Shown here one piece after another: positions 8,824 to 33,636 of a stretch of 64,000 bases of DNA. Every line of letters starts with the position of its first letter. Within the stretch, counting starts at the first letter, position 1. The translations under genes were made by a program, and so were the position numbers. The notes under the pieces were generated by a model. The model made no database searches, had not been told where the DNA came from, and worked only from the letters and a program-made list of their open reading frames with translations. This DNA comes from Escherichia coli (GTDB taxonomy: Bacteria > Pseudomonadota > Gammaproteobacteria > Enterobacterales > Enterobacteriaceae), in assembly GCF_013122565.1 (NCBI RefSeq), contig NZ_CP053258.1. One strand, written 5' to 3'.

Positions 8824-11136
8824 ATGCCTCGCCTGTTAACCAAACGCGGCTGCTGGATAACGCTGGCAGCTGCGCCCTTTCTCCTTTTTCTTGCAGCGTG
8901 GGGAGCAGATAAACTCTGGCCTCTACCGCTGCATGAAGTCAATCCCGCACGAGTGGTCGTGGCGCAGGATGGTACGCCGCTCTGGCGCTTCGCCGATGCT
9001 GACGGCATCTGGCGTTATCCGGTAACAATCGAAGATGTTTCTCCACGTTACCTTGAAGCGCTGATCAATTATGAAGATCGCTGGTTCTGGAAGCATCCGG
9101 GGGTGAATCCATTCTCGGTGGCGCGCGCAGCATGGCAAGATCTCACTTCGGGACGGGTTATTTCCGGTGGCAGCACGCTCACTATGCAGGTTGCTCGTCT
9201 GCTTGATCCTCACCCCAAAACATTTGGCGGCAAAATTCGCCAGCTCTGGCGCGCGTTGCAACTGGAGTGGCATTTGTCTAAGCGTGAAATTCTGACCTTG
9301 TATCTTAACCGCGCTCCGTTTGGCGGTACGTTGCAGGGGATCGGTGCGGCAAGTTGGGCTTATCTCGGAAAATCGTCTGCGAATTTAAGCTATTCCGAGG
9401 CGGCAATGCTGGCGGTGTTGCCGCAAGCGCCCAGCCGACTGCGCCCGGATCGCTGGCCGGAACGTGCCGAAGCCGCGCGTAATAAAGTGCTCGAACGGAT
9501 GGCTGCGCAAGGTGTGTGGTCCCGTGAGCAGGTAAAAGAGTCAAGGGAAGAACCCATCTGGCTGGCACCCCGACAAATGCCGCAACTGGCACCGCTGTTT
9601 TCGCGCATGATGCTCGGTAAAAGCAAAAGCGACAAAATTGTTACTACGCTGGATGCCGGTCTTCAACGACGTCTGGAAGAACTGGCGCAAAACTGGAAAG
9701 GACGATTACCACCGAGCAGCTCACTGGCGATGATCGTGGTTGATCATACCGATATGCGTGTTCGCGGCTGGGTGGGATCGGTTGATCTCAACGATGATTC
9801 ACGCTTTGGTCATGTCGATATGGTCAATGCGATCCGATCGCCAGGATCGGTGCTCAAACCGTTTGTTTATGGTCTGGCGCTGGATGAAGGCTTGATCCAC
9901 CCGGCATCACTGCTGCAAGACGTCCCCCGGCGCACCGGTGATTATCGACCAGGTAATTTTGATGGCGGTTTTCATGGCCCGATCAGCATGAGCGAGGCGC
10001 TGGTGCGCTCGCTGAATTTACCTGCTGTGCAGGTGCTGGAAGCCTATGGCCCGAAACGGTTTGCGGCAAAGTTACGCAATGTTGGATTGCCGTTATATTT
10101 GCCCAACGGTGCTGCGCCGAATCTTTCACTCATACTCGGCGGCGCTGGTGCAAAACTGGAAGATATGGCGGCAGCGTATACCGCGTTTGCTCGCCACGGC
10201 AAGGCAGGCAAATTGCGCTTACAGCCTGACGATCCGCTGCTTGAACGGCCTTTAATGTCGTCGGGGGCGGCGTGGATCATTCGCCGGATTATGGCTGATG
10301 AAGCGCAACCCTTGCCGGATAGTGCCTTGCCGCGCGTCGCCCCACTGGCATGGAAAACGGGCACCAGCTATGGCTATCGTGATGCCTGGGCGATTGGGGT
10401 TAACGCTCGCTATGTCATTGGGATCTGGACTGGCAGACCGGATGGCACGCCCGTTGTTGGTCAGTTTGGCTTTGCCAGCGCCGTACCGCTGTTGAATCAG
10501 GTTAATAATATCTTATTGTCGCGCAGTGCTAATCTGCCGGAAGACCCGCGCCCGAACTCAGTCACTCGTGGCGTTATCTGCTGGCCGGGCGGACAGTCTT
10601 TGCCGGAAGGTGACGGTAACTGTCGCCGCCGCCTGGCAACCTGGTTGCTGGACGGGAGCCAGCCGCCAACTCTATTACTGCCGGAGCAGGAAGGCATTAA
10701 TGGCATTCGTTTTCCCATCTGGCTGGATGAAAACGGCAAACGTGTTGCCGCTGATTGCCCTCAGGCGCGACAAGAAATGATAAATGTCTGGCCGCTACCG
10801 CTGGAACCCTGGTTGCCCGCATCAGAACGCCGCGCTGTGCGCTTACCACCGGCCTCGACAATTTGCCCGCCATACGGTCACGATGCACAACTCCCGCTGC
10901 AGCTGACAGGCGTTCGCGATGGCGCGATTATTAAACGTTTACCGGGCGCAGCAGAAGCGACTTTGCCGGTGCAATCAAGTGGAGGAGCAGGTGAACGCTG
11001 GTGGTTTCTGAATGGCGAACCGTTAACTGAACGCGGGCGCAACGTGACCCTGCATTTGATGGATAAAGGCGATTATCAATTGCTGGTGATGGATGAGGTG
11101 GGGCAAATCGCGACAGTGAAATTTGTCATGCAATAG
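8824..11136 (+). CDS. pbpC: Penicillin-binding protein 1C
   Basis: 770 aa; ATG immediately follows yfhM stop (TAAATG). Confidence 0.95.
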   Translation: MPRLLTKRGCWITLAAAPFLLFLAAWGADKLWPLPLHEVNPARVVVAQDGTPLWRFADADGIWRYPVTIEDVSPRYLEALINYEDRWFWKHPGVNPFSVARAAWQDLTSGRVISGGSTLTMQVARLLDPHPKTFGGKIRQLWRALQLEWHLSKREILTLYLNRAPFGGTLQGIGAASWAYLGKSSANLSYSEAAMLAVLPQAPSRLRPDRWPERAEAARNKVLERMAAQGVWSREQVKESREEPIWLAPRQMPQLAPLFSRMMLGKSKSDKIVTTLDAGLQRRLEELAQNWKGRLPPSSSLAMIVVDHTDMRVRGWVGSVDLNDDSRFGHVDMVNAIRSPGSVLKPFVYGLALDEGLIHPASLLQDVPRRTGDYRPGNFDGGFHGPISMSEALVRSLNLPAVQVLEAYGPKRFAAKLRNVGLPLYLPNGAAPNLSLILGGAGAKLEDMAAAYTAFARHGKAGKLRLQPDDPLLERPLMSSGAAWIIRRIMADEAQPLPDSALPRVAPLAWKTGTSYGYRDAWAIGVNARYVIGIWTGRPDGTPVVGQFGFASAVPLLNQVNNILLSRSANLPEDPRPNSVTRGVICWPGGQSLPEGDGNCRRRLATWLLDGSQPPTLLLPEQEGINGIRFPIWLDENGKRVAADCPQARQEMINVWPLPLEPWLPASERRAVRLPPASTICPPYGHDAQLPLQLTGVRDGAIIKRLPGAAEATLPVQSSGGAGERWWFLNGEPLTERGRNVTLHLMDKGDYQLLVMDEVGQIATVKFVMQ

Positions 11137-11284
11137 TCTGTTTTGTCCCTGATTGTTGCTTAAACTGGGTTTATTTTAAAAAAATGTTACCTTCAGCAAT
11201 AGTCAACGGCCCTGTTGCTCATTATAATCCGCGCCATCTCGTACGCTGGTACAGACAACAACAGAACAATTTACAGAGGTAAAC

Positions 11285-11716
11285 ATGGCTATTGAACGTA
11301 CTTTTTCCATCATCAAACCGAACGCGGTAGCAAAAAACGTCATTGGTAATATCTTTGCGCGCTTTGAAGCTGCAGGGTTCAAAATTGTCGGCACCAAAAT
11401 GCTGCACCTGACCGTTGAACAGGCTCGTGGCTTTTATGCTGAACACGATGGAAAACCGTTCTTTGATGGTCTGGTTGAATTCATGACCTCTGGCCCGATC
11501 GTGGTTTCCGTGCTGGAAGGTGAAAACGCCGTTCAGCGTCACCGCGATCTGCTGGGCGCGACCAATCCGGCAAACGCACTGGCCGGTACTCTGCGCGCTG
11601 ATTACGCTGACAGCCTGACCGAAAATGGTACCCACGGTTCTGATTCCGTCGAATCTGCCGCTCGCGAAATCGCTTATTTTTTCGGCGAAGGCGAAGTGTG
11701 CCCGCGCACCCGTTAA
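11285..11716 (+). CDS. ndk: Nucleoside diphosphate kinase
   Basis: 143 aa, [15 protein letters not shown]...; matches recalled E. coli Ndk. Confidence 0.97.
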
Positions 11717-11775
11717 TAATTTCGTAAATGCCGCGTGCAAACGTGGCATCCGTGCGCCAGAATTTGTACAATGAA

Positions 11776-11819
11776 GCGCCCCCGGACGAGCAGCCGCTCA
11801 CCGGGGCGTTTCTTTTTTC
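11776..11819 (+). terminator. Intrinsic terminator downstream of ndk
   Basis: gcgcccccgg...ccggggcg hairpin followed by TTTCTTTTTT. Confidence 0.6.
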
Positions 11820-11865
11820 AACCCTCCAGGGGCCATAACGTGTAATAACGAGGCCGGAATAGCAT

Positions 11866-13020
11866 ATGTCTGAACAATTAGTCACACCTGAAAACGTCAC
11901 CACGAAAGATGGAAAAATCAACCTGCTGGATCTCAACCGTCAGCAGATGCGGGAGTTTTTTAAAGATTTAGGTGAAAAACCCTTCCGCGCCGATCAGGTG
12001 ATGAAGTGGATGTATCACTATTGCTGCGACAACTTTGATGAGATGACCGACATCAACAAAGTGTTGCGCGGCAAACTGAAAGAGGTGGCGGAGATCCGCG
12101 CACCGGAAGTGGTTGAAGAACAGCGTTCATCTGACGGCACCATTAAATGGGCGATCGCCGTTGGCGATCAGCGCGTCGAAACGGTGTATATCCCGGAAGA
12201 CGACCGTGCCACGCTCTGCGTCTCTTCGCAGGTGGGGTGTGCGCTGGAGTGTAAATTCTGTTCCACCGCCCAGCAGGGCTTTAACCGCAACCTGCGGGTA
12301 TCGGAAATTATCGGTCAGGTGTGGCGTGCGGCGAAAATCGTCGGCGCAGCAAAAGTCACCGGTCAGCGCCCAATCACTAACGTAGTGATGATGGGCATGG
12401 GCGAGCCGCTGCTCAACCTGAACAACGTCGTTCCGGCGATGGAAATCATGCTTGATGATTTCGGTTTTGGCCTGTCTAAACGTCGCGTCACGCTTTCTAC
12501 TTCCGGTGTAGTTCCGGCGCTGGATAAACTGGGCGATATGATCGACGTTGCACTGGCAATTTCCCTGCACGCGCCGAACGACGAAATTCGTGACGAAATT
12601 GTGCCGATCAACAAAAAGTACAATATCGAAACGTTCCTTGCTGCGGTGCGCCGTTATCTGGAGAAATCCAACGCCAATCAGGGCCGAGTCACTATTGAAT
12701 ACGTGATGCTTGACCACGTTAACGACGGCACTGAACACGCGCACCAACTGGCGGAACTGCTGAAAGATACGCCGTGTAAGATCAACCTGATCCCGTGGAA
12801 CCCGTTCCCGGGTGCGCCGTATGGACGCAGCTCGAACAGCCGTATCGACCGTTTCTCAAAAGTGCTGATGAGCTACGGTTTCACCACTATTGTGCGTAAA
12901 ACTCGTGGTGATGATATCGATGCTGCCTGTGGTCAGTTGGCGGGCGATGTTATCGACCGTACAAAACGTACCCTGCGTAAACGGATGCAGGGTGAAGCCA
13001 TCGACATTAAAGCGGTCTGA
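11866..13020 (+). CDS. rlmN: 23S rRNA/tRNA m2A methyltransferase, radical SAM
   Basis: 384 aa; CALECKFC (CxxxCxxC) motif. Confidence 0.95.
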
Positions 13021-13024
13021 TAGC

Positions 13025-13066
13025 CATTACGCCACGGTTACTTTATGTACCGTGGCGTAATGTTTT
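13025..13066 (+). terminator. Hairpin terminator after rlmN
   Basis: 13-bp perfect stem cattacgccacggt/accgtggcgtaatg followed by GTTTTAT. Confidence 0.5.
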
Positions 13067-13304
13067 ATGAATGAAGTATTAAGTTGCAATTGTCTGGTCA
13101 ATATTAACGGTGCGTTTTTGCTGACTTTAAGGCAGTATGTAACGATGCAACAGTAAGTTAGCCTTAGTGAATGTGGGCTTTGTCACGAGCACACAGACGG
13201 TCTTATACTGTATGATAACGGTTAACTTAACGGATGTTTCGCGGTGTGGGTGAGCATGATGGTTCACCGGCATCTCAATTCTCATTTAAACGTACCTGCA
13301 GCGA

Positions 13305-14318
13305 ATGAATACTGAAGCCACGCACGACCAAAATGAAGCACTTACTACCGGCGCTCGCCTGCGTAATGCTCGCGAACAACTAGGACTTAGTCAGCAGGCC
13401 GTTGCCGAGCGACTTTGCCTGAAGGTTTCCACGGTACGCGACATTGAAGAAGATAAGGCACCCGCCGATCTTGCTTCAACATTCCTGCGCGGATATATCC
13501 GCTCTTATGCGCGTCTGGTACATATTCCAGAAGAAGAACTGCTGCCAGGGCTGGAAAAGCAGGCTCCACTACGGGCTGCAAAAGTTGCGCCGATGCAGAG
13601 TTTTTCCCTCGGTAAACGCCGCAAAAAACGTGACGGCTGGCTGATGACCTTCACCTGGCTGGTGTTGTTTGTGGTTATCGGCCTGAGCGGTGCCTGGTGG
13701 TGGCAAGACCACAAAGCTCAGCAGGAAGAGATCACCACTATGGCCGATCAATCTTCGGCGGAACTGAGCAGTAATAGCGAGCAGGGGCAGAGTGTTCCGT
13801 TAAATACGTCGACAACTACAGATCCGGCTACAACGTCCACGCCGCCAGCGTCTGTGGATACTACCGCAACCAACACGCAAACACCTGCCGTAACTGCGCC
13901 AGCACCAGCTGTTGATCCGCAACAGAATGCGGTTGTCTCGCCTTCGCAGGCAAATGTTGAGACCGCCGCGACCCCGGCACCAACGGCAACAACAACGCCA
14001 GATGGCGCTGCGCCGTTGCCAACCGATCAGGCTGGCGTGACCACGCCGGCGGCTGATCCGAATGCGCTGGTGATGAACTTTACTGCCGATTGCTGGCTGG
14101 AGGTCACTGATGCTACCGGTAAAAAATTGTTTAGCGGTATGCAGCGTAAAGACGGTAATTTGAACTTAACCGGCCAGGCACCGTACAAACTGAAAATTGG
14201 TGCGCCAGCCGCAGTACAGATCCAGTATCAAGGGAAACCTGTCGATCTGAGTCGTTTTATCAGAACTAACCAGGTTGCGCGTCTGACCCTCAATGCCGAA
14301 CAATCACCGGCGCAGTAA
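13305..14318 (+). CDS. rodZ: Cell-shape protein RodZ (HTH, single TM)
   Basis: 337 aa; N-terminal HTH, hydrophobic segment, Pro/Thr/Ala-rich linker. Confidence 0.93.
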
Positions 14319-14344
14319 CAGACGGGTAACGCGGGAGATTTTTC

Positions 14345-15463
14345 ATGCATAACCAGGCTCCAATTCAACGTAGAAAATCAACACGTATTTACGTTGGGAA
14401 TGTGCCGATTGGCGATGGTGCTCCCATCGCCGTACAGTCCATGACCAATACGCGTACGACAGACGTCGAAGCAACGGTCAATCAAATCAAGGCGCTGGAA
14501 CGCGTTGGCGCTGATATCGTCCGTGTATCCGTACCGACGATGGACGCGGCAGAAGCGTTCAAACTCATCAAACAGCAGGTTAACGTGCCGCTGGTGGCTG
14601 ACATCCACTTCGACTATCGCATTGCGCTGAAAGTAGCGGAATACGGCGTCGATTGTCTGCGTATTAACCCTGGCAATATCGGTAATGAAGAGCGTATTCG
14701 CATGGTGGTTGACTGTGCGCGCGATAAAAACATTCCAATCCGTATTGGCGTTAACGCCGGATCGCTGGAAAAAGATCTGCAAGAAAAGTATGGCGAACCG
14801 ACGCCGCAGGCGTTGCTGGAATCCGCCATGCGTCATGTTGATCATCTCGATCGCCTGAACTTCGATCAGTTCAAAGTTAGCGTGAAAGCGTCTGACGTCT
14901 TCCTCGCTGTTGAGTCTTATCGTTTGCTGGCAAAACAGATCGATCAGCCACTGCATCTGGGGATCACCGAAGCCGGTGGTGCGCGCAGTGGGGCAGTAAA
15001 ATCCGCCATTGGTTTAGGTCTGCTGCTGTCTGAAGGCATCGGCGACACGCTGCGCGTATCGCTGGCGGCCGATCCGGTCGAAGAGATCAAAGTCGGTTTC
15101 GATATTTTGAAATCGCTGCGTATCCGTTCGCGCGGGATCAACTTCATCGCCTGCCCAACCTGTTCGCGTCAGGAGTTTGATGTTATCGGTACGGTTAACG
15201 CGTTGGAGCAACGCCTGGAAGATATCATCACTCCGATGGACGTTTCGATAATCGGCTGCGTGGTGAATGGCCCAGGTGAGGCGCTGGTTTCTACACTCGG
15301 CGTCACCGGCGGCAACAAGAAAAGCGGCCTCTATGAAGATGGCGTGCGCAAAGACCGTCTGGACAACAACGATATGATCGACCAGCTGGAAGCACGCATT
15401 CGTGCGAAAGCCAGTCAGCTGGACGAAGCGCGTCGAATTGACGTTCAGCAGGTTGAAAAATAA
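14345..15463 (+). CDS. ispG: HMBPP synthase (MEP pathway)
   Basis: 372 aa. Confidence 0.95.
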
Positions 15464-15573
15464 TAACGTGATGGGAAGCGCCTCGCTTCCCGTGTATGAT
15501 TGAACCCGCATGGCTCCCGAAACATTGAGGGAAGCGTTGAGGGTTCATTTTTATATTCAGAAAGAGAATAAAC

Positions 15574-16863
15574 GTGTCGAAGAAAATTCAGTCTGTACGC
15601 GGTATGAATGATTATTTGCCAGTGGAAACCGCTGTATGGCAACGCGTTGAGCGCATAATTAAAAGCGTCGTTGAGTCTTACGGATACAGTGAGATTCGCA
15701 CACCTATTCTTGAGCAAACGCCACTGTTTAAGCGCGCTATCGGTGAAGTTACTGATGTTGTTGAAAAGGAGATGTACACCTTCAACGATCGTGAGCGTGA
15801 TGCGAAAGAGGTTGTTTCGTTAACTCTTCGCCCTGAAGGTACAGCAGGATGTGTACGCGCCGGCATCGAGCATGGCCTTCTGTACAATCAGGAACAGCGT
15901 TTGTGGTATATGGGACCGATGTTCCGCCACGAGCGCCCGCAAAAAGGGCGTTATCGTCAGTTCCACCAAATCGGTCTGGAAGTTTTCGGTCTGCAAGGTC
16001 CGGATATCGACGCTGAACTGATTATGCTCACCGCCCGCTGGTGGCGTGCGCTGGGTATCTCCGAACACGTAACTCTTGAGCTGAACTCTATCGGTTCGCT
16101 GGAAGCACGTGCCAATTACCGCGATGCGCTGGTGGCATTCCTCGAGCAGCATAAAGAAAAGCTGGACGAAGACTGCAAACGTCGCATGTACACTAACCCG
16201 CTGCGCGTGCTGGATTCAAAAAATCCGGAAGTGCAGGCGCTTCTCAACGACGCTCCGGCATTAGGTGATTATCTGGACGAGGAATCTCGTGAGCATTTTG
16301 CCGGTCTGTGCAAACTGCTTGAGAGCGCGGGGATCGCTTACACCGTAAACCAGCGTCTGGTGCGTGGTCTGGATTACTATAACCGTACCGTTTTCGAGTG
16401 GGTGACTAACAGTCTCGGCTCCCAGGGCACCGTGTGTGCAGGCGGTCGTTATGACGGTCTTGTGGAACAACTGGGCGGTCGTGCAACACCGGCTGTCGGT
16501 TTTGCGATGGGCCTCGAACGTCTTGTATTGTTAGTACAGGCCGTTAATCCGGAATTTAAAGCCGATCCTGTTGTCGATATCTATCTGGTGGCTTCAGGTG
16601 CTGATACACAATCTGCGGCTATGGCATTAGCTGAGCGTCTGCGTGATGAATTACCGGGCGTGAAACTGATGACCAACCACGGCGGCGGCAACTTTAAGAA
16701 ACAGTTTGCCCGTGCTGATAAATGGGGTGCCCGCGTTGCTGTGGTGCTGGGTGAGTCTGAAGTGGCTAACGGCACAGCTGTAGTGAAGGATTTGCGCTCT
16801 GGTGAGCAAACGGCAGTTGCGCAGGATAGCGTAGCCGCGCATTTGCGCACGTTACTGGGTTAA
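15574..16863 (+). CDS. hisS: Histidyl-tRNA synthetase
   Basis: 429-codon ORF from GTG with upstream aagaga SD-like sequence; class II aaRS; start codon choice uncertain. Confidence 0.9.
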
Positions 16864-16880
16864 GGAAGGAGAAGGACAGC

Positions 16881-17501
16881 GTGGAAATTTACGAGAACGA
16901 AAACGACCAGGTTGAAGCGGTTAAACGCTTTTTTGCTGAAAATGGCAAAGCACTGGCTGTTGGGGTGATTTTGGGCGTTGGCGCACTGATTGGCTGGCGC
17001 TACTGGAACAGCCATCAGGTTGATTCTGCACGCTCCGCTTCTCTTGCCTATCAAAATGCGATTACCGCAGTGAGCGAAGGCAAACCGGATAGTATCCCGG
17101 CGGCGGAAAAATTTGCTGCTGAAAATAAAAATACCTATGGTGCGCTGGCTTCTTTGGAACTTGCGCAGCAATTTGTTGACAAAAATGAACTAGAGAAAGC
17201 TGCCGCCCAGTTACAACAGGGGCTGGCAGACACGAGCGATGAAAATCTCAAAGCCGTGATAAATCTGCGTCTTGCTCGCGTTCAGATACAGCTCAAGCAG
17301 GCTGATGCCGCGCTGAAAACCCTTGATACCATCAAAGGTGAAGGGTGGGCTGCCATTGTTGCCGACCTGCGTGGTGAAGCATTGCTGAGCAAAGGTGATA
17401 AGCAAGGTGCGCGTAGTGCATGGGAAGCAGGCGTGAAAAGCGATGTTACTCCGGCACTGAGCGAAATGATGCAGATGAAAATTAATAATTTGTCCATCTG
17501 A
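16881..17501 (+). CDS. yfgM: TPR-like inner-membrane protein YfgM
   Basis: 206 aa, GTG start, MEIYENENDQ... Confidence 0.9.
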   Translation: MEIYENENDQVEAVKRFFAENGKALAVGVILGVGALIGWRYWNSHQVDSARSASLAYQNAITAVSEGKPDSIPAAEKFAAENKNTYGALASLELAQQFVDKNELEKAAAQLQQGLADTSDENLKAVINLRLARVQIQLKQADAALKTLDTIKGEGWAAIVADLRGEALLSKGDKQGARSAWEAGVKSDVTPALSEMMQMKINNLSI

Positions 17502-20558: not shown

Positions 20559-20575
20559 TATCATCTGAATGTATG

Positions 20576-20610
20576 GTTTTATCATTTGTATTTAATATAT
20601 AAATGATAAA
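20576..20610. promoter_or_regulatory. Perfect 10-bp inverted repeat in AT-rich region upstream of sinH
   Basis: tttatcattt-N13-aaatgataaa. Confidence 0.3.
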
Positions 20611-20767
20611 GCCATCTCTTATTGGTTAAATCACTAGTACATGTGAGTGAAATCATTTTGATAAATTTTTAGGAATATATTTAGTTTTTCTGACGTGCCT
20701 TCCTGAATGTTCTGGCATAGAATATTAGAGCTTATTCATCAAATTATCATTGCCACAGGGAAAGTGC

Positions 20768-22996: not shown

Positions 22997-23974
22997 ATGA
23001 AGCAGGACAAAAGACGCGGTCTGACCCGGATCGCATTGGCGCTGGCACTGGCTGGTTACTGCGTGACGCCCCTGGCGCTGGCGGAAGACAGCGCGTGGAT
23101 CGACAGCGGCGAGACCAATATTTTCCAGGGGACTATTCCGTGGCTCTACCCCGTTGATGAAGATGAGGTAACTGGCGCGGGTCGGGTGACGTTAACCTCT
23201 GACTATAAAGGTACTCGTCCGTCGGGAAGTACATCCGACAAGCGTATGTACTCTGGCGACAAATTAACGCTCAGTTGGGTGATTGGCGATACTGAAGGCG
23301 ACGTCGATCTTGGTACGGCGGGTAAAGATGCAAAAACCATCGACACCATCCGCTGGATGAGCTACAAGGACGCCCAGGGTGGCGATCCGAAAGAGCTGGC
23401 AACAAAGGTGACCACTTACACCCTTACCGATGCCGACCGTGGTCGTTATATCGGTATTGAAATTACCCCAACCACCCAGACGGGTACGCCATACGTTGGG
23501 ACTGCGCTGCATCTTTATGATGTTTCGAATGCTAACGGCGGGGGAAGCGATAAAGATAACGTTGATCCAGGACCGGTAGTTAACCAGAACCTGAAAGTCG
23601 CCATCTTTGTTAAAGACACCTCGACTAACCTCATTAACGGTAGTACGCCAATCCAGTTGGGCAAAACGTACGTCGCCAAACTGTACTCGGATGAGAACAA
23701 AAACGGTCAGTATGACGCAGGTACTGACGTTGATGTTACCGCCAATTACGACTTCCGTTGGGTTCTTTCTGACACCAGCGATCAGCTCGGTACGGGGGGC
23801 GGCATTGTTAACTCAAGCTTCGATAATCAAAACCTGGTCATCCCTGCGACCAACGACGAAGCCAGAACCAACCTTAACGGCCCTGCTCGTGATGGCAAAG
23901 ATGCCCTTGCGATCCCGACCAACGGCGATGGGGTTCAGGGTTACAAACTGCAGATTATCTACAAACACAAATAA
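22997..23974 (+). CDS. sinI: Secreted protein homologous to the C-terminal domain of SinH (SinI-like)
   Basis: 325 aa; signal peptide; last ~80 aa align with the SinH C-terminus (...VIPATN.EA...GVQGY.L...Y.K). Confidence 0.75.
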   Translation: MKQDKRRGLTRIALALALAGYCVTPLALAEDSAWIDSGETNIFQGTIPWLYPVDEDEVTGAGRVTLTSDYKGTRPSGSTSDKRMYSGDKLTLSWVIGDTEGDVDLGTAGKDAKTIDTIRWMSYKDAQGGDPKELATKVTTYTLTDADRGRYIGIEITPTTQTGTPYVGTALHLYDVSNANGGGSDKDNVDPGPVVNQNLKVAIFVKDTSTNLINGSTPIQLGKTYVAKLYSDENKNGQYDAGTDVDVTANYDFRWVLSDTSDQLGTGGGIVNSSFDNQNLVIPATNDEARTNLNGPARDGKDALAIPTNGDGVQGYKLQIIYKHK

Positions 23975-24094
23975 CACTTGCTCAACAGCATTCCCGCAAG
24001 GGAATGCTGTTTCCGCATATTTTGCTTAATCCAGGATTAAGCAAAATATGTTGATGCGGTAACCGTTCGTTAAATAACTGGTGGAGTTCTTTTC

Positions 24095-27000
24095 ATGTCC
24101 CAGCCCCTGAAACCCGGCACTTTTTATGTTCTGCTTGTATTGCTGCTAACCGCAATGCTGCCGGGATGGTCATGGGCGGGCTCATCATGGCAAGACTCAT
24201 CCGATACGGCGGGTGAATTTAACGGTACCGTCCCCAATGCCGACAGCGCCAGTATGCCGGTTTATCAGGGCAGTATTTGGCTTGATCCTGCAAAGCCCCA
24301 TGATGTTTCGTTTTCCGCTAAACCCAATGAATTTAGCGTTAATCTGGATGTGTCGAAGCTGATTGTGACGAACCCGCAGGACCTGGAAGGCGATGTGTTT
24401 ACCAACCCGCGTTGGGAAAACCAAACGCCGCCAGTGGTCTCTTTAGTCTGGGCGGATGCGGCGACACCGGAAACCCCACTTAATCCTCAGCCAGTGGCTG
24501 GGCGTTCCTTTTGTGCGCAAGGGCTTGCCGGGCGTTCGCTGGTTGTCTGGCCGCAGCCAGACCCACAGCAGACCATGCCGCAGCTTTATCTACGCACCTC
24601 GACAGGTTATCCCTATGAAAGTCTTCTGACGCTTGTCGATAAGAAAGTGACGTTAAATATTGCACCGGCCCAGGGCGACTTAATTTCTGTCAGCGCGGCC
24701 GGTTATGACGACACCGTGGGCGGGGCGAAAACTACCGTTGGCGGCAATATCACGTTGACCGTTACCACCAAAGACTGCAGCGGTAACGTTGCCGGAAATA
24801 TTCCTTTTATTATCAAACGCAAAGATGCTGAAAACCGACAGGGCGCAGTCAACAATGCTTCGCCGGTTGTTCTGGACAAAACTGAACTGACCACTATCGC
24901 GACCGAATATCACAGCACCACGGATGCGAACGGCGTTGCGACGATCACGGTCACGCAACCCAACGGCCCTGGTGTAAAAACGCCGCTGGTAGCCAGTCTT
25001 TCAGGTATTGGTCAAACCAGTGAAACGGCAGTGATCTTTACCGTCCTTACCAGCCCGGATGTCCCTCAAGCCATGATGTGGGGCCATATGCCCGATACGC
25101 TAAAGGCCCATGATTATACGTTCAGTCGGCCAAAACTGGCGGCGGAGGTCGATAACGAAAATGGTACCGTTAACGATCACAATGAAACCTGGTCTACCTT
25201 CACCTGGAATGGTGCGGATAAACATTGCGACATTTTGCCTGGTATGCGCCAGTTTGGCGCGTTGGCAACGGTGGTGCCCACGACAGTTCAGGATCTCGTT
25301 GGTTGGCCGATACAGGGTAACTACTACTGGTCATCACTGGCGGGGATGACCGGACAGCACCATGCGGCGGATGTTTCCAACCGTAGCGAAGCGCAAAAAC
25401 CGGACGATACGACGTTTATTGTCAGTTGTGTCGATAAAGACGCTCCTGACGTTGAACCGAAACTGGTGCTAACACCGGGAAGCTATGATTCGACGTTAAA
25501 GGCGATGAAAGTAAAGGTGGGGGAAGAAGCGTCTCTGCGTGTAACCATCACCGATAATAAAAACAATAATCAACCGCTGGCGTATTACTACTTTTCGTTA
25601 CATCTGGATGACGGCATCAACCGTAAAAATCAATCGGATGCGGCATGGGAAGCGCATCCGGTGCAGATAGCGGGTGGCAGCAATGTCCATCAGGTTGACG
25701 CGCATACCTATGAAGGCATTACGGATGTGAACGGTCAGGCATCACTGACGCTAACGCAACCGGGCGGCGCGGGCGTGAAAACACACATTACTGCGAAAAT
25801 GCGCAGCGACTTCACCACGTCGGATGAGAAAGACGTGATTTTTACAGTCATTACCAGCCCCGATACTGACAAAGCCCGGATGTGGGGGCATATGCAGGGT
25901 ATTATTGATTCTAATAATATCTTTAAACGTCCACGGCTGGCAGATGAAACCGACCATGAACTCGATTCAGTGCGAGAGAACAACGAAGACTGGGCGCTGT
26001 TCGACCAAAATGGCAGCATGCAGGCTGAATGTGGTGTAGGTCATATTCCGAGCCAGAATCAATTACAGGGTCTGTTCACGGCGCATCCTGGCAATGCGAT
26101 TGGCACCGAATATGGCTGGCCGACGGCGCAAAAAGATTACCTTAGTGCGGTACAACAAGAGCCACACTCCTCCGTGAACCTGGGCACAGGTAACATCGAC
26201 ACCTATTCAGGCTTTAAGCAGAACTATCTCTCCTGTTCCGGTAATGAGATGGTTGCTCAGATTACCGCAACGACCGATCATGACGTTTCCGTGGGTAGCA
26301 GGGCGCAGGCTAAAGTTGGAGAAACCGTCACCATGACGGTGCATACCTTCAATGCACTGAATAATGCGCCCGTGCCGTTTACCGCCTTCAGCATCACAAA
26401 GGAGATGGGTAAAAACCGTCAGGGGCAGACTACCGGATATACCGATCCGACGAGTGGCGCAATTGAGATGAATGGCAAGCTCTACGGAACATCCCAGGCC
26501 TCGGTGGTTTATTCCGGGACTACGGATGCACAGGGCTACGCAACGGTGGAGATTGAACAACCGCAGGGCGTGGGCTTAGCGACGCCGCTAAATATTGCGC
26601 CTGTGAACTCCTACATTCCCAATACAGTAAATTACAACGTGATTTTCACCACGCCTACCAGCCCGGATGCGGTGGCGGCGCAGATGTGGGGGCATATGGA
26701 TGAGACTATTACAGTCGATTCTTTAACCTTCACCCGGCCTAAACTGGCAGCGGAAGTTTCCAGCCCGGATGCGACATTGACAGAAAATAATGAAGTCTGG
26801 GCGCGTGTGAGTCAGGCGAATACATCCAGTATAAGTAAAGGTGGCTGCGGAGCGAATATGCTGCCGCGTCGATCCCAGCTTAGCGCGCTCTATGATGCCA
26901 ATAACGGTAATGCTGTACAGACAGTACACGGCTGGCCAACTCTGCGTGAGCCTTACTGGAGTAGTTCCCCTGCGGATAAAGTTCCTCATTTTTACACCAT

Positions 27001-30000
27001 TGCTCTCAATGATGGCGCACAGGCTATTGGCGGTAGCAACGCGGTTTATGTCAGCTGCCTGACGACGGCAAATAATCCTGCAAACGCTATTACTTTAGAG
27101 GTGGTGGATCAGGCGCAATGGAACGCGACGGCGAAAGCGGCGAAGCTGAAAAAAGGCGAAACGCTCCAGGTTAAGGTAACGGTGAAGGATGCTCAGGGCA
27201 ATGCACTGTCGGATATGCCATTCACCCTGAAACGTGGCGATGGTTATACTCGCTCAAATGAAAAACATATTGCTGGCAGCGGGGATGCGCTGGTTGCGCC
27301 AGTCATCGTCAACGGTGGCCTGACGGATGAGACTTCACTGAATGACACCGCGACAGCATACGCTACCATGACCGGCAGCGACGGCACTAAAATACTTACC
27401 ATAACCCGCCCTGAGACGCATGGCACCAAAACGGCGCTGATCGCTGCGCTGTATTCTGATGCAACGAAAAACGCCAGCCTCGACACCATTTTTACCGTTG
27501 CGACCAGCCCGGACAGCGATAAGGCGAAAATGTGGGGGCACATGGCGGAAACGGTGACGGCTACTGACGGCACGGTATTTAAACGCCCGCGCTTACTGAA
27601 AGAGTGGTCAACTCAGTCCTCTCTTACTGAAGATAATGAGGTCTGGGGGTTGTATAACATCAGCGATGCAAAATCTACCAGCAATGGCTGTGGCGCTAAT
27701 TATGTTCCTGCGCAGGTTGGGCTGGAGTCACTGTTTGACAATAACCGCAGCAACGCGATGAAAACCGTACAAGGTTGGCCGGTAGATACCCATTATCTTT
27801 CAAATACCTCAAGTACCGACAGTTTATCGCAGCATAATTACAAAGCCGTGGATCTGGGCAATGGTACCAGTACCTCAATATCCGCTTCCGAGAGGAAGTT
27901 GTTAACCTGCCAGACGACCGCGGTGTTACAGGCAAGCCAGATTCTGCTGGACGCAGCGGATCCAACCACCTTCGACAGCACAAATAATGTTGTCAAAGTT
28001 AAAAAAGGCGAAGCGGCAGTGGTGCGTGTAACCACGAAGGATTCGCAGGGGAATCCTGTAGGAAATACCGCATTTACCCTCAAACGAAACCACAGCGTGA
28101 ACAGGGCTAATGCGTCGAATACCACGTCGATTGCTTCACTGGTGGTAACGGATGCATGGGGAAATACTCAGGACAGTTTTCTTTCAACGTCCCTGGTCAT
28201 ATATGGCGTAACGGGGGCCGATGGCACCACCACCTTTACACTGAAACAAGACCAGTCTACCGGCTTAAAAACGGAACTCACGGCAGCGCTGGACTCCTCC
28301 AGCAGCATTACATCGTCGCTTCCCGTCGTCTTTACGGTGCTTACCAGCCCGGATTCGCCAAAAGCCAAATTCTGGGGGCATATGGCTGAAACGGCGACAG
28401 GCGATGACGGTCTCATTTATAAAAGACCATTGCTGAGAGACGAGATTAGCGCCTCTAGCGGTATCAGCACCCTGACAGAAGAGGGGGAAAACTGGTCTGC
28501 ATTCTGGGCGAACAATGCTAATGATACTTCGATAAGTGGTTGTGGCGCAGAGTATGTTCCCTCTGCCGATGAACTTAAGGCCATTTATGCGCACCAGGGG
28601 GGGAGCGCATTGCATGGTGCTATTGGCTGGCCAGTTTCGAAGCCCTATATCTCGAATACCGTCGCAGATATGTTCACTCAACCCTTTAAGTTTGATGTCG
28701 TTTCGCTGAAGACAGGAGATGAAACACAGATTTCATCAGGTAGTGGTGTAGGGCCTCTGAGTTGCCGGACCACACCTGTCGCCGTTGCCAGTCAGATCAT
28801 TGTTGAGGCGAACGATGCGGCGCAATTTGTCAAAGTTGACGATACCTTGAGTGCACTGAAAGTGAAAAAAGGTGAAGACGCGGTGATTCGCGTGGTGACC
28901 AAGGATGCGCAGGGGAATACCGTGCCCAATGTTCCCTTTATTCTCAAGCGCGAGGGCTCGAGAAACCGTCAAAATGTCGAGATGATAAACAAATCGATTA
29001 CGGTGATTAACGCGGCAGGGACTTCTACGAATGTGCTTAGTTCGTCAACACTGCTTTATGGGGTAACGGGCGCGGACGGGACTACCACGTTTACAGTAAA
29101 ACAAGATGATTCTATGGGTCTGATGACCAATATGTACGCTCAGTTGTATCAGTCGACGATAGAATCCAACAAATTACCGGTGATGTTTACCGTTATAACC
29201 AGCCCGGATACGCCTCTGGCAAACTACTGGGGGCATATGTCTGAAACCTTCACGACAAGGTCGGGGGTTGTCTTCAAGCGGCCAATGCTTAGTGCCGAGC
29301 ATCCAGCGGGGCAGTCAACCGTGGATAATAATGAAACCTGGCTTTCCTTGAATACAGCAGCAAAAAATGATGTCAGCAAATCAGGCTGTGACGAACCTTA
29401 TCAACCGTTATTAAGCGAACTTCAGGAGTTGTACAGTGAACATCCTAATGGTGCGATAGGAACCGATTTAGGCCTGCCGCTGACGAAAACCTGGTGGGCT
29501 TACGATAAAGTGGCCAACTCGAATGCCTGGTACGATCAGTCTGTTAATTTGTCGAATGGGTCAAGCGCCAGGGCGTCGTCAACCACCGTGGCGTTTGTGC
29601 CCTGTCTGGTAAACCCTCATCCAGTGGCTGCTTCTATTGAGATAACCTCCACGGCACTGGATGCGGAGAAAACGGCCAGTAACGATGGTCGCCCCAGCGC
29701 AACCGCACCGAAAGGTACGGCGATCCGGATGACGGTGATTGTGCGGGATAGCGCAGGAAATCCATTGCCCGGCGCCAACTTTAACCTCGTACGCGGGACG
29801 GCATTGGATCGTGCAAAATACAGTGTCGATAGTTCAGCTGATGATCTTACTCTCGTGCCTGTCACGCCTGCTGGCGTAAATATGACTCTCACGAGTAATA
29901 CATCAAAAGCACTGTTGACGACAGGCAGTGATGGTAAAGTGACCTTTGATGTGACGCAAAACGGGACTTATGGGCTGGCAACCCCGCTCACTGCAACATT

Positions 30001-32149
30001 GCTACGCGACACTTCAATAAGCGCCACGATGGATGTCATTTTCACGGTGATAACCAGTCCCGACTCACCGAAAGCAAAATACTGGGGTCATATGCCCGAC
30101 ACGTTTACCAGCAGTGCGGGGGTGACCTTTAAACGGCCGCTACTGGCAGCCGAAGCGACCTCCGGGTCCTCGGTTGGCAGTAATAATGAGTCGTGGTCAT
30201 ACATTGGTATTAACGAAAGAGCTACGTCGGATTGCTCACTGGAGTATCAGCCGCGTCTTAATGAGTTACAGGGGTTATATAACGATCATCCTGGCGGGGC
30301 CATACAGACGGATCTGGGGTTACCTGTAGCTGCCGGAAGTGGAAACTGGTGGGCTTATGAAATGAGTATGCCTAACCCCAGCGGGTCGGTGTGGTTTTAC
30401 GGCATCATTAATTTGAAAACGGGACAATCGTCGACCACGTCGAGTGGATTCGCTTTAATGCTCTGCCTGACGCAGCCGCATACGGTACCGGCAAGCCTTA
30501 CACTGTCATCAACCGCCTACGATGAAGGCAGAACCGCCAGCAATGGTGGCACACCTACGTCATCTGTGAAAAAAGGTGAGACGCTTCCCTTAGTGGTGAC
30601 GATCAAAGATGCCAATGGTAACCCCGTTGGCGGCGAAGGCGTTACGCTCAAGCGCGCGCAGGCGAAAAGCCGTTCAGGTATCTCTGTCTCCCCCACTACC
30701 GCCGATGATCTTATTTTAAATGAAGTCACACCGGAATCAGCCAGCTTTTCCTTCGCCGCGGATTTGGCATCATGGAGCGGCATCACCGGCAGTGACGGCA
30801 CTGTAACGTTCAATATTACACAAAAAAATACAATCGGCCTGGTAACGCCGTTTACAGCCTCATTGGGGCGAAATCCGCAGGTCACCGCCAACCAGGACCT
30901 GATGTTCACGGTGGTAACCAGCCCGGATTCGCCGAAGGCAAACTACTGGGGGCATATGCCAGCAACCTTGACGGCAGTGAATGGTGCGGTATTTGAACGC
31001 CCGAAATTGTGGAGTGAACTGCCATCGACCTCCGGCGTCGGCAAGATCAATAACAATAATGAGGACTGGCCGTACTATTCACCGACAAAAAAATCTGATG
31101 AGAGTGTGACCCCTTGCGAAGTGGCAAGACAGCCTCTGCTTAGTGATTTAAATTCGCTGTCTGCGCGTTATCCGAATAACTCCTTCGCTGCTGAAACGGG
31201 CTGGTCTGTGTATTACACCTGGTGGGCAGAGGATAAATCCGCCGCGGGTAAAGATCAGTCGGTGGATTTGAGAGATGGCACGCTGTATACGTATGCATCA
31301 GGAGCATTTCAACCTTGCCTGGTTAACGCGCGTTCAACTGTTTCTAGCGTCACACTTACCTCAACGGCGTTTGACGCTACCACTCAGGCGGCGAAAGTGA
31401 AAAAAGGCGAAGCCATGCCGGTGACGGTCACGGTGAAAGACAGCGCCGGGAAAACGGTGCCGAATGTGGCTTTTACCCTGAAACGCGGTGATGCTGCGCC
31501 AAGAAACCCTGGTATGGCCTTGTACGGTGATGTGGATGCGATGGATGACCTGACCGTTCAACCGACATCGGGAGCGGCGGTGACGTGGTCTGAAAGTGGC
31601 AACTTGCTACAGGGGACCACTGGCTCTGACGGCACCGCGACGTTTATGATTAAACAGGATCATTCGCCGGGCTATAAAACCCCTTTGACGGTCACGTTGG
31701 ACAATAACACCAGCATCACTGCGACAATGGACGCTATTTTCACCGTCGTGACCAGCCCGAATGTCTCAAGCGCCTATTACTGGGGGCACATGGCAGATAC
31801 GACCACGGTGAACGGTAAAACACTGCATCGCCCGTTGTTGGCATCGGAGCTACCTGCGAATGCTTCTTCCCCAGCCACGCCTGACGTAAACAATGAAGCC
31901 TGGGCTATGGGGCATATGGTGGATTCAAGGAATTGGGATATCGAGGCGCAGTGTGGCAGCTTGACCAACGCGCCAAACGATGACGACTTAATGGGTCTGT
32001 ATACTAACTTTAGTTCGCTGGGTTGGCCTGCATCCCCGAGTTTTCCTTACTTATCTTCTCAGAGATGCGGCGTGTTTGAGAACAGTGGACAACAGGACTG
32101 CGCTATTGCGCCAGGCAACACAAAAGGTTTTGTGACTTGTACCCAATAA
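24095..32149 (+). CDS. ratA: Giant repetitive surface/secreted protein (RatA-like)
   Basis: 2684 aa; signal peptide; nine ~275-aa repeats each with F-T-V-x-T-S-P-D...W-G-H-M and two conserved cysteines. Confidence 0.85.
24990..31830 (+). repeat. Nine imperfect tandem coding repeats of ~810-860 bp inside ratA
   Basis: ccagcccggat...tgggggcatatg recurs near 25045, 25855, 26660, 27505, 28345, 29205, 30055, 30915, 31755. Confidence 0.85.
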
Positions 32150-32157
32150 GATGACCA

Positions 32158-33636
<1,479 letters not shown>

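Follow-up and report, generated by a model that had tools for sequence, protein, structure and literature searches.

The window analysed here, a stretch of 64,000 nucleotides of Escherichia coli DNA given as one strand, harbours the gene order der–zinc-ribbon gene–sinH–sinI–ratA–xseA found in Escherichia. In publications the sinH–sinI–ratA cluster goes by the names CS54 and “ila”. SinH (IatB) belongs to the inverse autotransporters, while the SinI and Rat proteins may be secreted partners (PMC4943183, PMC12928451, PMC6714894). The iatB (sinH) promoter is activated by LeuO and is subject to LeuO/H-NS-type control (PMC6714894). The cluster plays a role in gut colonisation by Salmonella and in urinary-tract virulence of E. 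coli (PMC12928451, PMC4943183), and SinH is under development as a vaccine antigen (PMC9937491).

The annotated counterpart used here is the locus of E. coli MB53, which is 99.7% identical to the window across locus and spacer and shows the order ispG–hisS–yfgM–bamB–der–zinc-ribbon gene–sinH–SinI-family gene–“adhesion domain-containing protein”–xseA. The MB53 RefSeq annotation places no feature within the 120-nt spacer between sinI and ratA (23975–24094), which is the subject of this analysis. The locus occurs in 1688 of 5426 complete E. coli genomes, where it falls into three sequence classes. The gene context given in a preliminary description of this DNA is borne out by the open reading frames, RefSeq and Pfam: a SinI-family gene lies upstream of the spacer and a RatA-like adhesin of 2684 amino acids downstream. 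The Salmonella RatA orthologue carries Pfam BIg21/InvE_AD repeats, and the ratA-like reading frame directly 3’ of the spacer measures 5.6–8 kb in the window and Salmonella. The features referred to below are the following.

22997–23974, plus strand: sinI, SinI-family autotransporter-associated protein of 325 amino acids, stop codon TAA at 23972–23974 (open reading frame list, RefSeq annotation of the E. coli MB53 locus, SinI-family homologues).
23984–24011, plus strand: hairpin 1, GC-rich and terminator-like, 12-bp stem AACAGCAUUCCC-GCAA-GGGAAUGCUGUU (inverted-repeat search, minimum free energy (MFE) fold, covariation).
24010–24016, plus strand: linker UUUCCGC, a short U-tract followed by a conserved CCGC (nearly invariant alignment columns, U counts, basal pairs).
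24012–24054, plus strand: hairpin 2, extended helix (about 19 pairs) in which a single C·U mismatch is conserved, with an apical loop at 24032–24034 (inverted-repeat search, MFE fold, RNAalifold).
24021–24028, plus strand: 5’ arm of the hairpin 2 core, UUUGCUUA, near-invariant among 28 distinct sequences.
24038–24045, plus strand: 3’ arm of the hairpin 2 core, UAAGCAAA, near-invariant among 28 distinct sequences.
24050–24054, plus strand: conserved GUUGA on the 3’ side of the hairpin 2 base, including the conserved G·U and C·U positions (alignment).
24080–24097, plus strand: ratA ribosome-binding region, GGUGGAG followed by the ATG at 24095 (sequence; unpaired in RNAalifold and outside any conserved structure).
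24095–32149, plus strand: ratA-like giant adhesin gene, 2684 amino acids (open reading frame list; RefSeq annotation of E. coli MB53).

Some further features of the locus were recorded. The ratA-like reading frame is intact in the window (24095–32149), and the MB53 copy (extracted locus 9196–17247) is annotated as a pseudogene with an internal stop. SinI residues 32–48 (23090–23140) and RatA residues 30–47 (24182–24235) have in common a motif W-x-DS..T..F-x-GT-x-P, which follows both signal peptides; the BLASTP E-value of this similarity is just 0.04–0.24. The motif also occurs at the N-termini of SinI and RatA relatives from other genera and may represent a shared targeting segment. A 19-pair AT-rich palindrome, ATGGTTTTATCATTTGTATTTAATATATAAATGATAAAGCCAT, lies at 20573–20615 upstream of sinH, in the spacer that separates this gene from the zinc-ribbon gene and that is likely its promoter region. 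Finally, GC-rich palindromic units resembling REP/BIME elements were seen by eye at 32150–32235, after the ratA stop codon and before the convergent xseA.

Two hairpins between sinI and ratA

The spacer contains two palindromes, located where the preliminary description had placed them, as judged from the sequence and an inverted-repeat search. Hairpin 1 begins 9 nt (about 10) past the sinI stop codon. Its DNA arms AACAGCATTCCC and GGGAATGCTGTT (23984–23995 and 24000–24011) are perfectly complementary and enclose the 4-nt loop GCAA, so that the stem originally read as 9 bp is in fact 12 bp long; a core of 10 bp (23986–23995 and 24000–24009) is conserved. Hairpin 2 forms a perfect palindrome at 24016–24050, with 17-nt arms (24016–24032 and 24034–24050) around one central base. 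Formally the arms thus comprise 17 nt, and in practice the earlier reading of 16 bp with a 3-nt loop holds. The MFE and the comparative fold extend this helix downwards through the pairs U24012–A24054 and C24013–G24053, the mismatch C24014·U24052 and the pair G24015·U24051; accordingly, the 3’ part of the linker constitutes the 5’ side of the hairpin 2 base. A flanking CCGCAT/ATGCGG repeat had also been proposed. The repeat is present (24009–24018 and 24054–24063, 90%), but it overlaps the palindrome and is used by neither the MFE nor the comparative fold. Together, the two hairpins make up a module of approximately 71 nt (23984–24054), or 84 positions in the model that includes flanks.

The region folds with unusual stability. 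For positions 23970–24100 (131 nt) the plus-strand MFE is -47.6 kcal/mol, compared to -25.9 ± 3.2 kcal/mol for 200 dinucleotide shuffles, none of which folded as well (z = -6.8); the minus strand yields z = -5.9. Neither palindrome recurs in the 64-kb window, where 0.00 chance matches are expected. RNAalifold, applied to the longer sequences, predicts both helices independently and extends hairpin 2 down via the G·U pair, the C·U mismatch, a C–G and a U–A pair, such that the last residues of the U-tract are paired. Two additional pairings, a third closing helix UCAAC…GUUGA and base pairs between the core and the region of the ratA start, can be drawn in some lineages; they are not conserved and are absent from the RNAalifold prediction. 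A locus-wide search showed neither core arm to have another conserved copy that might serve as a long-range partner or a second operator.

Conservation and strand of the structure

Loci were gathered by DNA similarity within E. coli, by a SinI profile run against one genome per species, by exact-protein look-ups in Salmonella and by a motif scan of metagenomes. The module follows sinI in Escherichia, Salmonella enterica, S. bongori, Citrobacter, Pseudocitrobacter, Superficieibacter and other Enterobacteriaceae, and it is kept even where the identity of SinI to the protein of the window falls to 37–45%. After the sinI stop codon the parts appear in the order GC-rich hairpin with a variable stem, TTT(T)CCGC, 4–5 variable paired bases, TTTGCTTA, about 9 variable bases, TAAGCAAA, 4–5 paired bases and GTTGA. 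All 69 motif matches with recognisable flanks lie 3’ of a sinI homologue, 5’ of a ratA-like gene, or both; for matches at a contig end one flank only could be checked. The other 26 matches are AT-rich, lack hairpin 1 and the linker, and are chance background of the gapped pattern. The motif scan detected no copies in viral contigs, phages or genuine plasmids. The sole “plasmid” matches to the spacer, PLSDB entries NZ_CP141089.1 and NZ_CP134663.1, are 4.9-Mb chromosomes filed as plasmids. The 3.1-kb contig JAIJJM010000381.1, labelled “MAG: Collinsella sp.”, carries sinI, spacer and ratA of the E. coli B2 type and is probably mis-binned.

With a covariance model derived from 28 distinct sequences, each examined locus yields exactly one strong match, always at the sinI–ratA junction. 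The Salmonella ratA–ratB spacer (165 nt, extracted locus 16678–16842) differs in composition and contains no copy of the element according to the same model. Among 13 diverse loci, column identity amounts to 0.77–0.84 within the element versus 0.46 and 0.33 in the adjoining spacer; the element is as conserved as the best-conserved nearby coding stretches. The core is exact in 14 of 16 distinct spacer types and one base off in the remaining 2, and the choice of these types had been based on SinI protein or flanking DNA, not on the core motif itself.

Altered forms of the two-hairpin module follow sinI in E. albertii and Leminorella. The E. albertii core arms, UUUACUUA…UAAGUAAA, feature a compensatory G–C to A–U change together with a 20-nt apical insertion; a search of E. 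coli genomes for variants of this type gave no match. Leminorella retains hairpin 1, a U5 tract and a long second hairpin, yet the 5’ arm of its core reads UUUGAAAA and the other arm has changed to match, with CUU/AAG replaced by AAA/UUU. In Citrobacter sp. R56 most of hairpin 2 is gone and GUUGA is retained, and this strain as well as relatives in Lelliottia and Buttiauxella possess the first hairpin only.

Covariation was assessed on a plain MAFFT alignment of the 28 distinct sequences, without structure fitting. Under the two-helix model 96.4% of the cells pair, whereas sliding the partners by 1–3 columns lowers this value to 38–48% (about 41%). Changes on both sides are seen in 14 pairs, 7 per helix, and none of 500 shuffles reached the observed values. 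Hairpin 1 contributes both-side changes in 7 of its 10 core pairs, and 99.3% of its cells pair. The strand on which the structure acts can be read from helix 2, where 94.7% of the cells pair on the plus strand versus 77.9% if read as minus, and where 82 G·U/U·G cells but only 2 A·C cells are found on the plus strand. The basal G·U pair of hairpin 2 (columns 43–81) occurs in 27 of the 28 sequences, and covariance model scores are 65–89 bits on the plus strand versus 18–39 bits on the minus strand. Such an asymmetry cannot come from recognition of duplex DNA; it indicates a structure of the sense-strand RNA, or at least of the single strand. The apical insertion and the compensatory core change of E. 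albertii likewise argue for RNA rather than a DNA operator. Hence, the structure is a conserved sense-strand RNA of the sinI→ratA transcript.

No description of the module was found in Rfam or the searched literature. Searches of Rfam 15 with the E. coli and Salmonella spacers returned E-values of at least 1 and scores far below the gathering thresholds, and the best matches were miRNA and CRISPR-repeat models fitting generic hairpins. The spacer goes unmentioned in the publications on the cluster (PMC4943183, PMC12928451, PMC6714894), and searches of literature and supplements for RNA-seq, term-seq or transcription start site data at the sinI/ratA junction found nothing.

Candidate roles in ratA expression

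Hairpin 1 shows the GC-rich stem, the loop within the range of 3–8 nt and the position just past a stop codon that characterise intrinsic terminators, and in 28 relatives its stem has energies between -15 and -19 kcal/mol. The 8 nt after the hairpin contain 3–5 U residues (3 in the window, 4–5 in most relatives), followed by CC. As the terminator scan required at least 5 T in 8 nt, hairpin 1 of the window was not called, and in Salmonella the scan called only an alternative pairing. The earlier wording, a terminator without a clean T-run, is nevertheless fair, given that the stem covaries and a tract of U3–5 is present in nearly every relative. Judged by these features, hairpin 1 looks like a leaky intrinsic terminator. 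Owing to the short U-tract, which falls below the scan threshold, partial rather than efficient termination is expected, and termination could even be weak or absent. A sigma-70 promoter scan of the spacer in the window and Salmonella identified no promoter-like site. Lacking a promoter in the spacer, ratA would depend on read-through from upstream, or else a promoter internal to sinI may supply its message.

The reading we prefer, to which we give about an even chance, is that the spacer encodes a cis-acting module of sense-strand RNA, composed of a leaky terminator and a second hairpin that is made upon read-through only and acts on the ratA message. Hairpin 1 would combine leaky termination with stabilisation of the 3’ end of the sinH–sinI message, and only a fraction of the polymerases would pass it into the 8-kb ratA gene. 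Because hairpin 2 is transcribed only after hairpin 1 has been passed, it cannot be a classical antiterminator and would have to act on the read-through RNA. Its effect on the ratA message would thus be post-transcriptional, most likely as a determinant of double-strand-specific processing or stability. The length of 18–22 bp and the base reaching into the U-tract suggest a processing site or a protective stem: hairpin 2 could offer a helix of the size cleaved by RNase III, or become a protective stem at the 5’ terminus after cleavage in the linker. In all 28 sequences its 18–22 pairs, interrupted by one 1x1 mismatch, correspond to the roughly 20–22 bp of mostly uninterrupted double-stranded RNA expected of an RNase III site. 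Docking of a specific factor is also conceivable. Moreover, the two hairpins would leave almost no single-stranded RNA between the cistrons on which Rho or RNase E could load. From the sequence comparison we infer a role of hairpin 2 in processing, stability or factor binding; the module as a whole probably determines the amount of ratA message that is produced or that persists, and may in this manner control read-through or ratA expression. Some observations fit this proposal less well. An RNase III site or stabiliser does not call for an 8-bp core of invariant sequence flanked by pairs that are free to covary, and Citrobacter sp. R56 and the relatives in Lelliottia and Buttiauxella manage without hairpin 2.

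The invariant core, the G·U pair and the C·U base are left unexplained by a purely structural role and thereby leave room for a specific factor. A specific factor acting in trans might recognise hairpin 2, be it an RNA-binding protein or a polymerase-modifying RNA element akin to phage put/nut sites, although we regard this as distinctly less probable than the preferred reading. Such a factor would gate the long ratA gene, for instance by making elongation resistant to termination linked to Rho or H-NS, or through control over the translation or decay of ratA, a scheme we hold with little confidence. Put more specifically, and just as tentatively, hairpin 2 with its UUUGCUUA/UAAGCAAA core could be an undescribed cis-regulatory motif of Enterobacterales, by which a dedicated factor or RNA polymerase itself licenses RatA production; that licensing would proceed through, e.g., processive antitermination or gated processing rather than passive stability is similarly doubtful. 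The conservation in sequence of the 8-bp core, of the G·U pair (27/28) and of the C·U mismatch next to covarying pairs exceeds the needs of a structural role and is in line with a factor, as are the survival of GUUGA where the rest of hairpin 2 is lost, the position immediately ahead of a 5.6–8-kb reading frame and the two-hairpin layout of about 84 nt. Yet the MB53 annotation reveals no candidate factor encoded at the locus, sequence-specific recognition of a fully Watson–Crick helix would be unusual, hairpin 1 has the look of a common terminator and not of an antiterminator component, and no homology to any Rfam family is apparent. In addition, the compensated cores of E. albertii and Leminorella show that pairing is no less important than identity. 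The preliminary description had suggested an operator or an RNA attenuator for hairpin 2, and the choice between these falls on the side of RNA. An operator for a dimeric transcription factor, TTTGCTTA-N9-TAAGCAAA, that acts as a roadblock to ratA or regulates a ratA promoter would account for the perfectly conserved inverted half-sites, the N9 spacing of most members and the variable middle 9 nt, and it would suit a locus under LeuO/H-NS-type control at the sinH (iatB) promoter (PMC6714894). This explanation is nonetheless quite improbable: duplex DNA recognition cannot produce the 82 G·U versus 2 A·C cells, positions outside the half-sites covary, and the spacing varies from N8 in E. coli E69-type loci to about 16 nt longer between the arms in E. 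albertii, where the compensatory G–C to A–U change falls inside a “half-site”. Nor are there promoter-like hexamers nearby, and neither the sinH promoter nor the rest of the locus has a conserved second half-site copy. A palindromic DNA operator thus fails on fixed spacing and strand symmetry as well as on promoter adjacency. A classical attenuator is unsupported, since the terminator-like hairpin precedes hairpin 2, and both MFE and RNAalifold predict two separate hairpins without any conserved alternative pairing.

The palindromes might also be functionless, as remnants of REP/BIME, ERIC, MITE or IS ends or as products of hairpin-templated mutation only. Intergenic palindromes of enterobacteria are often of the REP or ERIC type, and REP-like units do follow ratA at about 32150–32235. 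The module, however, is present in one copy in the 64-kb window and once per locus, and phages and genuine plasmids lack it. Its syntenic junction does not change between genera, it evolves under purifying selection with compensatory changes, and it matches no Rfam repeat family. Being single-copy, it is not a REP, ERIC or MITE element; the many dispersed copies typical of such repeats are not seen, and this origin is largely refuted and barely credible. By-eye comparison with sigma-54, RfaH ops, boxA, IHF, SlyA-like and integron attC-like motifs produced partial or single-lineage matches, none of which is conserved, and the CsrA motif GGA in the loop of the window is not conserved either.

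The cis-acting RNA module remains our preferred reading, and its significance lies in the following points. It is among the most conserved non-coding parts of the surveyed locus, and it would provide a concrete, mutable handle on the balance between the small SinH and SinI and the RatA proteins of 2,000–2,700 residues. Covariation and strand evidence make it a well-supported candidate for the catalogue of enterobacterial structured RNAs.

Comparison with known systems

Canonical Rho-independent terminators resemble hairpin 1 in the 10–12-bp GC-rich stem, the stable tetraloop (GCAA, UUCG and others), the U-run immediately 3’ of the stem and the location near a stop codon. They differ from hairpin 1 in that the latter has just 3–5 U residues followed by a conserved CC, and in that its U-tract is drawn into the base of hairpin 2.

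In kind, the module can be grouped with those terminator and processing hairpins between cistrons by which operons adjust the ratios of their genes. Intercistronic hairpins set gene ratios in chaperone-usher fimbrial operons, where a stem-loop follows papA or fimA, and REP hairpins do so between malE and malF. These arrangements share with the sinI–ratA module a stable hairpin after the upstream cistron and a subsequent short U-run, a co-oriented adhesin cluster, and a large and costly downstream gene without a visible promoter. In contrast to them, the sinI–ratA module always adds a longer second hairpin with an invariant core and is single-copy and locus-specific instead of a generic repeat.

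Several polycistronic mRNAs contain hairpins that RNase III processes, among them the T7 early R1.1 site and the leaders of rpsO-pnp and rnc. Hairpin 2 resembles them in its long helix, here of 18–22 bp (about two turns), in the small internal mismatch and in the intercistronic place. RNase III substrates are normally less conserved in sequence than hairpin 2, which differs from them in this respect.

The putL and putR sites of phage HK022 are two-hairpin, cis-acting antiterminator RNAs without a terminator-like U-run. They match the module in a size of approximately 70–85 nt, in two adjacent stem-loops and in the position ahead of a long transcription unit. This resemblance concerns the layout: unlike the put RNAs, the module has a terminator-like U-run after hairpin 1 and stands outside any phage context.
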